A DNA stretch of 64,000 bases from Octopus vulgaris (taxonomy: Eukaryota), in assembly GCA_951406725.2 (NCBI GenBank), contig OX597818.1, positions 54,002,001 to 54,066,000 of the forward strand. The letters are read 5' to 3'. The stretch's first letter is position 1; each line of letters starts with the position of its first letter. This document shows, piece after piece, positions 27,546 through 61,729 of the stretch. The position numbers were made by a program, and so were the translations under genes. The notes under the pieces were generated by a model. That model had not been told where the DNA came from, made no database searches, and worked only from the letters and a program-made list of their open reading frames with translations.

Positions 27546-27617
27546 GGGGATGTAGCTCAGTGGTAGAGCATTCGCTTTGCATGCGAAAGGCCCCGTGTTC
27601 GATCCCCGGCATCTCCA
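27546..27617 (+). tRNA. tRNA-Ala (anticodon TGC), retroposed copy; functionality unknown
   Basis: 72 nt, GGGGATGTAGCTCAGTGGTAGAGC...TTCGC TT TGC AT GCGAA...GTTCGATCCCCGGCATCTCCA. Acceptor stem GGGGATG/CATCTCC includes the G3:U70 alanine identity pair. One T-stem mismatch; A and B boxes present. Confidence 0.9.
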
Positions 27618-55306: not shown

Positions 55307-56989
55307 GTCTGTCCTTGTTTTATTGTTCTGTCCATCATGGGGAATGTTTAAAATGTATGAAACTTGTAAAGTAAGTCTGAACATGTTGCCCGGTGGCATG
55401 TATAAAAAGATTCGAGCGAGGTCGTTGCCAGTACCGCCTGACTGGCCCCCATGCCAGTGGCACATAAAAGCACCCACTACACTCTCAGAGTGGTTGGTGT
55501 TAGGAAGGGCATCCAGCTGTAGAAACTCTACCAGATCAAGATTGGAGCCTGGTGCAGCCATCTGGTTTGCCAGCCCTCAGTCAAAATCGTCCAACCCATG
55601 CCAGCATGGAAAACAGACGTTAAACGATGATGATGATGATGATGATGTGTTGACATGTTAATCAGACAATAGAAATAGCAGCCAAATCTTGCTCAAAATC
55701 ACACCACATAACTTAAATTCTATAGTTATTATCATCGTTACTATTTAACATCCATTTTCCATGATGGCATGGATTGGATGATTTGACAGGCGCTAGTAAA
55801 TCAGGGAGCTCCACTCTCTCTCTGACGTGGTTTCTCTGGCCAGATGCCCTTCCTAACATTAACCACCAAGTAATTCATGAGATCACCAAGTAATTCACAA
55901 GATAAGACCTTTCAACTGAGGGGCACATAAGTACTGTATTGAGTCCTACGATGCCTTAGGGCTGGTTACCCAGTTTGCCAGGCATATCTGTTCTATTGAC
56001 CAAGGCCTAAATTCCCCATAGGAGGAGGTAGCCACAACAAAACACACACCAGGTATTCCATTCATTTCCCAGCTCAAAAAGGTGAGCCCCACCCTATGCT
56101 TGGGTCAAGGCATAGAACGCGACCCCCAATATCAGCAGCAGGGCTTGACAGTATATGCTGGTTCCGTATTCCATCATCATCACCCTCATTCAGCTTGCTA
56201 GAAATAACAATCAAGTTTTCCTCAAATCAAAAATTGCAATCCAAAATTTGAAAGACTGTATTTGAAAATATGCTCCCTGAAATACAAAAACATGGGATGG
56301 TCATGGCTGGAGAGCCTTTGATATTAGGTCTGCTCGATCAATGCTGATTTGGAGCTAAAACGACCACAACCTTTGGAGACAGGATGTAAATACTATAAGA
56401 CATCACACTGAGTACAGTGCAAGTAGGAAAAGATATTGTTGTAACCCCTAAGATGTAGGGATTACGTGATACTACAATCCCTAGGGTGCACTTTGCTAAA
56501 GCCTCCCAAAAACCAAATTATAATATTAAAGTGAAGGATATATTAAGTCTACAAAAGCGAAATCGAATTGAACCAGCCAGGATCCCTGGTCTGGTGGTAC
56601 GTAAAAAGCACTATCCAACTCGTGGCCGATGCCAGCGCCGCCTCGACTGGCTCCCATGCCGGTGGCACATAAAATACACCAATCCGACCATGGCCGTTGC
56701 CAGCCTCGCCTGGCACCTGTGCAGGTGGCATGTAAAAAGCACCCACTACACTCACGGAGTGGTTGGCGTTTAGGAAGGGCATCCAGCTGTAGAAACATTG
56801 CCAGATAAGACTGGAGCCTGGTGCAGCCTTCTGGCTTCCCAGATCCCCGGTCGAACCGTCCAACCCATGCTAGCATGGAGAACAGACGTTAAACGATGAT
56901 GATGATGAATCTGAGGATAGGTACAGCCCATCTCATAGGCCTTTAATCAATTTTCATTGCCCAGTTTTTCCTACAAGGTAGTGACCAAT

Positions 56990-57335
56990 CACCCGTGGAC
57001 ATGTTTACAAAGTCAGAAAACAGCACAGCTCCCATGACTTTCGGAAACATTTTTTTCATGCTAAGAGTTGCTGAAGCATGGAACGAACTTCCAGCATCAG
57101 TTGTTAGTTGTCGGAGCACTGCATCCTTCAAAACTTCCATGCTTCGTGAGATTCGCCAACACTACACCTGATTTTCTCCCCTCCATACACACACAAGCAT
57201 GTATCTGACTCATACATTGTTTGCTTTCCAGACATTTGTACATTACTGCATGTGCTTTATATGCACTTTTGACAAGTTGTGGTGCACCTGAGCACTGCAT
57301 ACAATAATTTCATTATTATTATTATCATTATTATA
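56990..57335 (+). mobile_element. CR1 LINE 3' fragment
   Basis: Matches 51528-51840 including the (ATT)n tail. Confidence 0.9.
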
Positions 57336-58530
57336 AAAGCCTACAAGGTACTGACCAATCAAAAGCCTACAAGGTAGTGACCAATCAAAAGTGGGTGCTG
57401 CTCTTCCTTTTCTAAGATTGTGGAGCAGACATTTTAACTACAAGGCGTTGCCTGTTCCTGAAAATATCTCTGAAAGTAGGCAGGACATATAATATCACCA
57501 AGTCCTTTGACCGGAGGTTGGAAAACCCTTTATATCATGGCCCCACTTCATGGAGTTGTTGATTACTTATTGATTACTTATTGATAATATGAAGATGTAT
57601 AATGAATAAATTTCTTAATTGTAAGACAACAATCTTTTTGATCTTTTGTGTTATTTTTTTTTTCTATTTTTCACCCTTTTTCAAGCCTATCCAGGCTCAT
57701 GGGCCCGGCTTCCCGGTTTCTGTGGCATATATGTTCCCCCCAACTAGACGGGACGCCAGTCCATCACTGCGTTACCTAAGAAGCAAGAAGAAAGAGTGAG
57801 AGAAAGTTGGGGGCGAAAGAGTACAACAGGGGTCGCCACCACCCCCTGACAGAGCTTCATGGAGCTTTTTAGGTGTTTTCACTCAATAAACACATACAAC
57901 GCCCAGTCTGGGAAATCGAAACTGCGATCCTCCGACCGCAAGTCTGCAGCCCTAACCACTGGGCCATTGCGCCTCCACTTTTTGTGTTTTAATTAGAAAT
58001 ATTTAATGAGCTTAATGAAAATATTTAGCATACATAATTGATAAAGGACAATAAAAATTCAATCATATTAAATTGATATTATTGAAATATCAACCTCTAG
58101 CATAGCTTTAAGCCCCCGCCACCCTACTTCCTAGGGTCATTGTTGACTACCTAATGAACCCCCTTCTCTAGGCTATAACCCTAAATGTGTGTGTTGTTTA
58201 AAGTGCAACAAATAAATGAATTAGTTGGAATTAGAATTGTAGATGCCAGCGCCACCCTGACTGGCTTCCGTGCCGGTGGCACGTTAAAAGCTCCAACCGA
58301 TCGTGGACGCCCTGGCACCTGTGCAGGTGGCACGTAAAAAGCACCCACTACACTCGCGGAGTGGTTGGCGTTAGGAAGGGCATCCAGCCGTAGAAACTCT
58401 GCCAGATCAGACTGGAGCCTGGTGCAGCCCCTGGCTTCCCAGACCCCGGTTGAACCGTCCAACCCGTGCTAGCGCGGAAAACGGACGTTAAACGATGATG
58501 ATGATGATGTGGTGTTTGATTTCTTTTCAG

Positions 58531-58914: not shown

Positions 58915-59237
58915 ATTTCATTATTTATATTATTTACATTCAACACATATTTTTCCTCGTCTTGTTTGTTGTTAACACAACATTTTGGCTGATATACCTC
59001 TCCAGCCTTCATTGGGTGTGTTGGGGGAAATTTCAAACCTGGATTCTCATTCCTAAGGTATATCTTTCGATGTTGTTGTTGTTGGCATCGGCGTTGTTGT
59101 CACTGCTTGGAATCGAACTTGGAATCTTAGGGTTAAGAGCACGAGCTACTAACCCCAAGATTCCGAGTTCGATTCCGAACAGTGACCTAAATACTAATGA
59201 TAATAATAATAATAATAATAACAATAATAATAACAAC

Positions 59238-59268
<31 letters not shown>

Positions 59269-59430
59269 TCGAAAAATATACTTTAGGAATGAGAACCCAG
59301 GTTCGAAATTTCCCCAAGACACCTGAAGAAGGCTGGAGGGTATATCAGCCAAAACGTTGTGTTAACAACAAACAAGATGAGGACAAATATCCGTCAAATG
59401 TAAATAATATAAATAATTCCTCATCTCTTG
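58915..59430. mobile_element. head-to-head inverted element: tRNA-like head + (AAT)n + hammerhead-like 3' part
   Basis: Right arm: GGTTAAGAGC... B-box GAGTTCGATTCC (59165-59176), then (AAT/AAC)n, then GACAC-CTGAAGA-A-GGCTG..CAGCC-AAAA-CG-TT-GTGTT (59318-59363). The left arm 58915-59135 is the diverged reverse complement. Confidence 0.6.
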
Positions 59431-59740
59431 CAATATTCTCTATGTGAGTTCATGTGTTGAAGCATATTCTGTTGTGTCTGGGAAGAGTCATTTTCTTTTT
59501 GTGCCTTATAATTTAACACACTCACTGGTAAAATTTCCACTTATTTCTTATTTTTATTTTCCTAAAATTTCCATTGCGTCTTGTAACCTTTTCAATATTT
59601 TTTTTTCAATAGCCAAGACTATTGAAAAGGTTGCAAGATGCAACGAAAATTTTAGGAAAATAAAAATAAGAAATAAATGGAAATTTTACTGGTGAGTGTG
59701 TTACATTATAAGGCATAAAAAGAAAAGGACTCTCCCCAGA
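59430..59740. mobile_element. second copy of the fold-back family with a U3-A8 hammerhead-like motif
   Basis: Near-identical to 51985-52320. + motif 59619-59655: CTA-TTGAAAA-G-GTTGCA-AGA-TGCAAC-GAAA-AT-TT-TAG. Confidence 0.6.
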
Positions 59741-60438
59741 AAAGCACCATCCAATCGTGGCCGTTGCCAGCCTCACCTGGCCCCCGTGCTGGTGGCACAT
59801 GAAAAGCACCCACTACACTCACGGAGTGGTTGGCGTTAGGAAGGGCATCCAGCCGTAGAAACATTGCCAGATCAGACTGGGCCTTTGCAGCCTTCTGGCT
59901 TCCCAGACCCCAGTTGAACCATCCAACCCATGCTAGCATGGAAAGCAGACGCTAAATGATGATGATGATGATGATATATATATATGTATATGTATATAAA
60001 TTAGAACAAAACCACCTTTTATCAATTCAACAATGAAATAATTAAATATAAGATAAAAACTTATACCAATGTACAAAATAATAAATAAAAAGTATATACC
60101 AATCATATACTTTTTATTTATTATTTTGTACATTACTTAATCATTGGTTTAAGTTTTTATCTTATATTTGATTATTTCATTGTTGAATTGATAAAAGGTG
60201 GTTTTGTTCTAATTTATATACATATATTATATTTTGTGAAATTTGATTTAGTATTACTAAATTAAAATTTTCCCTGTAAGTTTGGAATAATATTCCCTAT
60301 TATTATTATTATTATTATTATTACTATTACTATTACTATTATTATCATTATTATTATTATTATATCTCAACAAATAAACCATAAAAAATAAATGTATTGT
60401 TCTGATTCTCATTTTCCTATTATTTTGTTCTTGAACAG

Positions 60439-60597: not shown

Positions 60598-61439
60598 GTT
60601 AGTAGCTTTCTGTTTTCTTATTATTATTTTATAAAACATAATATGCTTCCCAACTACATGGTTCCAGGTTCAATCCCACTGCGTGGCACCGTAGGCAAGT
60701 GTCTAGCCTTAGGCTGACCAAAGCATTGTGAGGAGATTTAGAAGACGGAAACTGACTGGCCCTTGTGCTGATGTCACATAAAAGCACCCACTACACATGG
60801 TTGACGTTAGGAAGGGCATCTAGCTGTAGAAACTCTGCCAGATCAGATTGAGCCTGGTGCAACCTCTGGCTCACCAGTCCTCAGTCAAACCGTCCAACCC
60901 ATGCCAGCATGGAAAGCAGATGTTAAATGATGACGATGATGATGATGATAATTTAGAGATATGCTGTGATTTTGAAGACCCGACAAATGAAGTGAGTTCA
61001 TGGCTCGCAGGACGGCCTGCTGTGCTAACCTTGGATCGTAGAGTGACCCGTTGTTCTTGAGGAGACATATTGAGTCAAGTACATCAACATCAAAAAAAAA
61101 TTCAAATGGAAACTGTAGTTATTACACCCGTGCCAGTGATACGTAAAAAGCACCGTCCGAATGTGACAGATGCCAGCGCCGCCTGGCTGGCGTCCGTGTC
61201 AGTGACATGTGAAAGCACCAATCGATTGTGGCCGTTTGCCATCCTCCTCTGGCCCCTGTGCTGGTGGCACGTAAAAAGCACCCACTACACTCATGGAGTT
61301 GTTGGCGTTAGGAAGGGCATCCAGCTGTAGAAACACTGCCAAATCAGACTAGAGCCTGGTGCAGCCTCCATGGCTTACCAGACGCTGGTCGAACCGTCCA
61401 ACTCATGCTAGCATGGAAAACGGACGTTAAATGATGATG

Positions 61440-61480
<41 letters not shown>

Positions 61481-61729
61481 TCATCATCATCATCGTTTAG
61501 CGTCCGCTTTCCATGCTAGCATGGGTTGGACGGTTCAACTGGGGTCTGGGAAGCCAGAAGGCTGCACCAGGCCCAGTCTGATCTGGCAATGTTTCTACGG
61601 CTGGATGCCCTTCCTAACGCCAATCACTCCGTGAGTATAGTGGGTGCTTTTTACGTGCCACCAGCACAGGTGCCAGATGAGTTTGGCAAACGGCCACGAT
61701 CGGATGGTGCTTTTTATGTGCCACCAGCA

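Follow-up and report, generated by a model that had tools for sequence, protein, structure and literature searches.

An autonomous Penelope/Poseidon-type retrotransposon family of Octopus vulgaris with a tRNA-like head and a minimal hammerhead at its 5' end, a candidate for Pol III transcription

The repeat at positions 58915..59430 of the window, i.e. the whole stretch of 64,000 nucleotides of Octopus vulgaris DNA that was analysed, can with somewhat better than even confidence be read as a decayed head-to-head pair of short 5'-end copies of an autonomous Penelope/Poseidon-type retrotransposon with a tRNA-Arg-derived start. Judged by their sequence, the tRNA-like head, the linker and the hammerhead of such copies almost certainly constitute the pseudo-LTR, or 5' end, of this autonomous family, because both head and hammerhead adjoin the open reading frame (ORF) in loci retrieved with the ORF as anchor, and because the majority sequence is identical for short copies and for those linked to the ORF. 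The element is a PLE member that is SINE-like at the level of its short copies, without a separate SINE lineage.

The features of the window copy are listed in Table 1. All motifs that an initial annotation had named for the right arm are found in place, including the tRNA-like head portion GGTTAAGAGC at 59131-59140. The truncated inverted copy that it had described, joined head to head via a GGTTA microhomology, is likewise evident: the inverted arms are complementary over 79 nt at 91% and over 60 nt at 88%, and an alignment of the two arms gives 80%. The same GGTTA/TAACC junction is found again in three of 92 other heads (L210, L215 and L226). Two occurrences of the hammerhead 18-mer lie in the window, versus 0.04 expected. 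RNAfold forms stems I and II of the window motif, at -12 kcal/mol and a z-score of -1.5, a stability that by itself is not significant. Position 59351 of the right-arm hammerhead carries an A where G12 is expected, a case of CpG decay; the annotation had also noted the replacement and its CpG site. Because of this replacement the window copy is predicted to be inactive. The left arm stops at the inner of two preferred 3' ends (ORF nt ~129) and the right arm at nt 141, by which the pair fits the two-site pattern of PLEs. No target duplication is visible around the inverted pair.

Table 1. Features of the repeat in the window (positions are those of the window).
Feature	Position	Strand	Remark
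tRNA-Arg-like head, +17 onward	59131..59189	+	A box mostly gone in window copy
B box GAGTTCGATTCC	59165-59176	+	matches T-loop of genomic tRNAs
(AAT/AAC)n linker	59190-59267	+	length differs between family copies
Penelope ORF codons 1-47	59289..59429	+	from first ATG of the 835-aa majority frame; N-terminus homologous in P0001
Minimal type I hammerhead inside ORF	59318..59363	+	cleavage predicted after 59358
Hammerhead motif pieces	59318-22, 59323-29, 59331-35	+	GACAC, CTGAAGA, then A, GGCTG
Hammerhead motif pieces, rest	59346-50, 59359-63	+	CAGCC (pairs with GGCTG), then AAA-CG-TT, GTGTT
Piece of ~30-nt Penelope 'tail' between both preferred 3' ends	59418..59429	+	right arm only
Left arm, inverted 5'-truncated copy	58920..59135	-	head from ~+34, short linker, hammerhead, ORF start
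Left-arm hammerhead motif	58974..59020	-	core changed at several positions including G12
5-nt microhomology GGTTA/TAACC	59131..59135	.	joins both arms head to head

Exact 19-mer counts over the 2.8-Gb genome amount to 10,128 for the hammerhead and 5,834 for head positions +30..+48, with 0 for the reversed controls. The majority sequence contains the full A box, the B box and G12, as the initial annotation had expected of a consensus. G12 is kept in 37 of 45 readable cores of an unselected sample, which comprises 92 heads in genome order, each required to hold the +30..+48 motif, and in 22 of the 30 best matches. Head and hammerhead also occur together beyond chance nesting, with the hammerhead tail following the head in 77 of the 92 unselected heads and in 26 of the 30 best matches. 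The family majority hammerhead consists of a CUGANGA...GAAA core, helices I and II, an NUH site and a palindromic remnant of helix III. The core variant U7A (CUGAAGA), which is that of the window copy, is present in 7 of the 45 unselected cores and may be a sub-lineage marker. In loci L018, L021, L095, L180 and L221 head and hammerhead are split by (TAA)n-tailed elements inserted in the (AAT)n linker. A free-standing tRNA-(AAT)n SINE was considered as the source and rejected; the tail is missing in 15 of the 92 heads, mostly beside an inverted partner or with an interrupted linker, and no separate family is seen.

The full head aligns best to tRNA-Arg(TCG) and tRNA-Arg(TCT) among the distinct genomic tRNAs fetched, an incomplete set of isoacceptors, and none of 300 shuffles equals this alignment. 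An nhmmer match of the tRNA-like head has an E-value of 1.5e-4. Although its A and B boxes are complete, the head has neither a tRNA fold nor a tRNA score, and neither in the window nor in family copies is the element called as tRNA or hammerhead by Rfam and ARAGORN. By its alignment to the tRNAs of the host genome the head is of tRNA origin, in keeping with the earlier description.

Upstream of the head, many loci run into one common coding sequence. In 23 of 30 loci from an ORF-anchored search the head follows on the same strand within a few hundred bases, while a search anchored in the N-terminus of the ORF finds the hammerhead part directly upstream and in frame in 11 of 30; locus L084 shows the order pseudo-LTR, ORF, pseudo-LTR of a partial tandem. 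The unit is composed of the tRNA-like head, (AAT)n, ATG, the hammerhead within the first 25 codons, the RT ORF, stop, 29 nt and the next head. The script-built majority sequence has a single ORF of 835 aa, starting 21 nt past the (AAT)n, in a unit of ~2.65 kb (2,654 nt), and the 'tail' of the short copies is equivalent to the first ~130-155 nt of this ORF. The comparison with autonomous Penelope pseudo-LTRs of the same genome, which the initial annotation had proposed, thus identifies head and hammerhead as the pseudo-LTR/5' end of that family. Among the loci fetched no copy is intact; identity to the majority sequence has a median of 92.8% and reaches 95.5% at best, and the long copies are ~7% diverged.

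A natural open frame of 569 aa in locus L285 ends just before a head and shares 37% identity with Anolis P0034 along all 569 aa, with the likeness spanning the RT and the C-terminal region, through the VY.IP.SCG..Y.G.T motif. The family RT is matched by Pfam RVT_1 with E-values of 1.4e-10 and 1.5e-7. A homologue search with the ORF yields 282 homologues, including Anolis P0034; the closest relative, P0001, is 56% identical to the majority protein and keeps the hammerhead-coding codons in frame at its N-terminus. In a quick tree of 19 rows, suited to clade placement only, the family ORF lies apart from the Neptune-type ORFs. The GIY-YIG domain (Pfam PF01541) has no match in L285 or P0034 and matches P0001 only at E 0.23. 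Several Neptune-type PLE families are also found in the genome: a young one (L271:1145-3487, L272, L281 and more) with many open 781-aa frames and proteins that are 95–98% identical, in which L272 has an extra upstream frame of 333 aa, and two further ones represented by L273/L276 and L275.

The initial annotation had regarded the repeat as a separate non-autonomous element, a view that is not upheld. An independent SINE with a hammerhead tail borrowed from Penelope would have the observed size, tRNA head, discrete 5' end and thousands of copies, but it is most improbable, given that the head belongs to the autonomous unit and the hammerhead leads into the ORF in the anchored loci described above. 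Moreover, the majority sequences of ORF-linked copies (46 heads, 36 tails) and of short copies (130 heads, 101 tails) are the same over 76 + 150 nt, and the heads of both classes are alike in divergence (92.9% versus 93.7%). Comparison of short with ORF-linked heads reveals no lineage specific to the short copies, although those whose boxes are intact could act as sources in their own right.

The 3' ends of the copies cluster at two sites, ORF nt 121–130 and 154–161. They fall inside the ORF start, and a poly(A) or simple-repeat 3' tail as in LINE priming is absent. The copies are dispersed singles and inverted pairs, whereas tandems include the ORF; an inverted neighbour is present for 51 of 81 short copies. 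The arms of 53 out of 72 inverted pairs end one at each site; 5 pairs have both arms at the inner and 0 at the outer site, and 14 have one arm ending elsewhere. Direct repeats of at least 8 nt flank 32 of the 72 pairs, versus a mean of 1.6 in shuffled pairings. Hallmarks of PLEs given in PMC8557442 are an inverted 5'-truncated partner and a 30–40-bp tail on one end. For PAc of Anolis carolinensis, the account in PMC11167929 describes cutting and extension of both target strands, an internal RT start 111–118 nt into the ORF, a tail that corresponds to the stretch between two RT start sites, an ORF overlapping the hammerhead, and insertion without a need for cleavage. Since the pair ends and direct repeats of the octopus family match these descriptions (PMC8557442, PMC11167929), Penelope-type machinery, rather than that of a LINE, is indicated as the mobiliser, in agreement with the annotation. 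At the genomic level, the 72 inverted pairs support the view that both target strands are primed, and at two distinct RNA sites. In addition, the 19 nt preceding the head (L054:1555-1605 (-); family positions -19..+17) resemble a degenerate inverted copy of the head 5' end, which suggests that the fusion of head and ORF end arose by the head-to-head mechanism that also makes inverted pairs.

The 5' ends are clustered as well. For the 92 heads, 64 ends lie at -7..+8, 14 at +11..+30, 3 at -12..-26 and 11 beyond -60, and the cluster holds for heads without an inverted neighbour (21 of 30). Upstream of the head the exact 19-mer counts are 894 at -31..-13 and 497 at about -350, so that the copy number steps down 6.5-fold across ~60 nt, compared with 1.7- and 1.8-fold over longer flanking stretches; short copies outnumber ORF-linked copies ~6.5 to 1. 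The simplest reading of this cluster of DNA ends would be an RNA 5' end ~6 nt before tRNA +1. The genomic copies start 10–14 nt before the A box, these being DNA ends and not RNA ends. Transcription by Pol III starts 10–20 nt upstream of an A box, a range that the copy ends fit. With the boxes and the ends taken together with the T4 counts given below, it is as probable as it is doubtful that Pol III drives the coding unit.

The principal alternative is Pol II transcription of the same autonomous Penelope family, in which case the tRNA-like piece would be a passenger that entered the pseudo-LTR as an old SINE or as a tRNA retrocopy tailed by (AAT)n. This explanation is unlikely, although it deserves more weight than any other alternative considered here. 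The cluster of 5' ends would in that case reflect either a Pol II start close by or a hairpin at which RT stalls and the template pairs: the family ends spread over ~15 nt rather than sharing one base, and a hairpin of -13 kcal covers -19..+17, overlapping +1, so that the cluster could be due to RT stalling or to a start by Pol II. A TATAA at -34..-30, ~30 nt upstream, fits Pol II or Pol III. The combination of a head with (AAT)n does resemble a retrocopy with a simple-repeat tail, and the internal promoter of Drosophila Penelope is described as LINE-like (PMC2377424). Transcription by Pol II is, however, difficult to reconcile with A and B boxes that are perfect although the tRNA fold is lost, and with copy 5' ends at the Pol III start distance. 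The copy number moreover drops eight-fold within ~35 nt, as against two-fold over the next 325 nt, which is much for a modest hairpin.

Further evidence on this point comes from T4 runs. The majority sequence, to which the count refers, has a T content of 21.9% and is free of T4 runs along its 2,654 nt, and natural family copies contain 0.44 per kb (70 natural stretches). Two Neptune-type families of the same genome, at 21–23% T, have 7–9 T4 runs per ORF. Relatives were taken from 80 related loci in metagenome contigs; none of the 50 with a coding match of at least 1.5 kb is T4-free (median 4.8 T4 per kb), unlike the octopus unit as a whole, and this again speaks against Pol II. None of 20 composition-matched relatives is T4-free either (2.4 T4 per kb), and the observed/expected ratio of TTT is below that of the family in only 1 of 80 relatives. 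The absence of T4 is of modest significance in a codon-shuffle test (P=0.03; 0.012–0.024 with control codon usage). On the side of Pol II, some relatives are poor in T4 yet lack the tRNA head (L316 with 1 in 2.3 kb, the close relative L313 with 1 in 1.8 kb, and three short matches with 0), and the region from stop to hammerhead is free of T4 in 4 of 20 relatives. The 80 related loci yielded no tRNA-like segment, ARAGORN having been applied to 60 of them and only 45 extending at least 300 nt past the match. T4 runs common to at least 15% of the copies are absent, but so are C4 runs, which leaves this comparison without power. Other Poseidon-type families could not serve as a control from the same genome, as all 30 loci fetched belonged to the family under study.

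Three RNA runs compared with L285 have equal depth on both strands, and 63–69% of the reads continue into unlike sequence, so that they are uninformative on the element's own transcript; they show no pile-up of starts or ends on L285 and are unable to show one reliably. Contigs of four further runs cover the head and the ORF end, and some of them span the joint. Their loose ends, near +2 and -6, coincide with private changes of L285 and are not base-precise.

Pol III has been argued to limit element length, the elements listed in PMC10886601 being 100–1,263 bp long. This counts against Pol III driving a 2.65-kb unit, the uncapped RNA of which would in addition need to be translated. A mixed mode, in which Pol III makes only short RNAs that are retroposed in trans in a SINE-like manner and the coding RNA comes from Pol II, would agree with the preference of Pol III for short RNAs (PMC10886601) and with the ~6.5 short copies per ORF-linked copy. 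It is nevertheless improbable, and clearly more so than transcription by Pol II throughout, as it leaves the absence of T4 from a 2.5-kb ORF without explanation, and a tandem unit offers no terminator past the priming sites. Short copies carry the U7A core variant more often than ORF-linked ones (25 of 101 versus 2 of 36), as a mixed mode might suggest, but this excess is biased because 30 loci were chosen by their likeness to the window copy, which itself bears U7A; the variant accounts for 7 of 45 in the unselected sample.

With Pol III as the polymerase of the coding unit, the following course of events is proposed. The captured tRNA-Arg-derived segment would act as an internal Pol III promoter of the Penelope unit, with transcription beginning ~6 nt before tRNA +1, and in the absence of a T4 terminator Pol III would cross the 2.65-kb unit and continue into the following one. 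The RT of the element would then prime internally at two sites in the ORF start, as it does in vitro for PAc of the anole. Priming in the first unit would yield a cDNA of ~250–300 nt that reaches the RNA 5' end; an RNA 5' end near the head and internal priming together leave only head, linker and hammerhead, and hence SINE-sized copies. Priming in the second unit would give 5'-truncated copies that contain the ORF. Both target strands would be primed, one per site, and the two cDNAs would join via microhomology into inverted pairs with a tail on one arm. Cutting by the hammerhead would require a dimer or protein, and insertion would not require the hammerhead. The full reading, that of an autonomous coding retrotransposon which captured a tRNA-Arg promoter, lost its T4 runs, has its uncapped RNA translated and by internal priming produces thousands of SINE-like copies, may equally well be right or wrong.

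In many respects the octopus family corresponds to known PLEs. It shares with PAc (PMC11167929) and Drosophila virilis Penelope (PMC2377424), as they are described there, a single RT ORF, the PLE-type C-terminal region and partial tandems, as well as a hammerhead that overlaps the beginning of the ORF, two 3' ends within the ORF that are separated by ~30 nt, and an inverted 5'-truncated partner. Unlike these elements, the octopus unit starts with a tRNA-derived A/B-box segment and is without a T4 run; the mapped promoter of D. virilis Penelope is LINE-like with Inr/DPE rather than of tRNA type (PMC2377424). The ribozyme itself does not differ from the minimal type I hammerheads of metazoan PLEs as outlined in PMC4209133, with a 5-bp helix I, a 6-bp helix II with an unpaired base 5' and a palindromic helix III remnant. 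According to the same source, minimal hammerheads are a known and frequent feature of truncated PLE copies, and opposite-strand hammerhead pairs 100–700 bp apart are truncated PLEs; its main text makes no mention of tRNA or Pol III.

Pol III-type promoter sequence plus a hammerhead is also found in schistosome Sm-alpha/Sj-alpha, but in the review PMC6765202 these are non-coding tandem repeats with canonical hammerheads, whereas the octopus element is coding and has a minimal PLE-type ribozyme. The TRIMp3 elements Cassandra, Helenus and Ajax, as presented in PMC10886601, similarly hold a promoter captured from a small RNA in their terminal repeat, with the boxes kept and the fold lost; they are non-autonomous LTR elements of 311–1,263 bp, unlike the autonomous PLE of ~2.65 kb in octopus. 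Short PLE-related copies that share pseudo-LTR sequence with an autonomous family are reported for animal non-LTR retrozymes (PMC7229834; bioRxiv 10.64898/2026.07.22.740005) and for putatively non-autonomous Chlamys elements (PMC8557442). Retrozymes are characterized there as tandem non-coding repeats of 170–400 nt with canonical hammerheads, while the octopus copies are dispersed singles and inverted pairs and do not qualify as retrozymes. The descriptions consulted for both groups make no mention of a tRNA head.

No Pol III-driven or tRNA-headed autonomous PLE was found in the literature searched, which consisted largely of open-access main texts, and repeat databases may already list the family, perhaps under the SINEs. 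The retroelements for which Pol III promoters have been described, namely SINEs, TRIMp3 and Sm-alpha, are non-coding, and Pol III has been argued to restrict their length. Should the coding unit indeed be driven by Pol III, this would lead from a Penelope element directly to a SINE, and it would imply that translation and retroposition of an uncapped 2.7-kb Pol III RNA are possible in an animal and that an ORF can be shaped by the avoidance of terminators. Whichever polymerase is used, internal priming by Penelope multiplies the 5' end of an autonomous element thousands of times, and repeat pipelines are likely to label the resulting copies as SINEs.

Other features of the window include a tRNA-Ala(TGC) gene at 27546-27617 (+), with a score of 64.4 bits, and, to the right of the element, two MITE-like inverted repeats at 59477-59740 (126 nt at 90%) and 59987-60226 (85 nt at 98%). 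Another abundant repeat has at least five copies in the window, at 56580-56990, 58230-58510, 59740-59970, 60640-60950 and 61100-61720. It contains internal subrepeats of ~63 nt and a (GAT)n tail, one pair of its copies is inverted, and it is presumably a SINE family.
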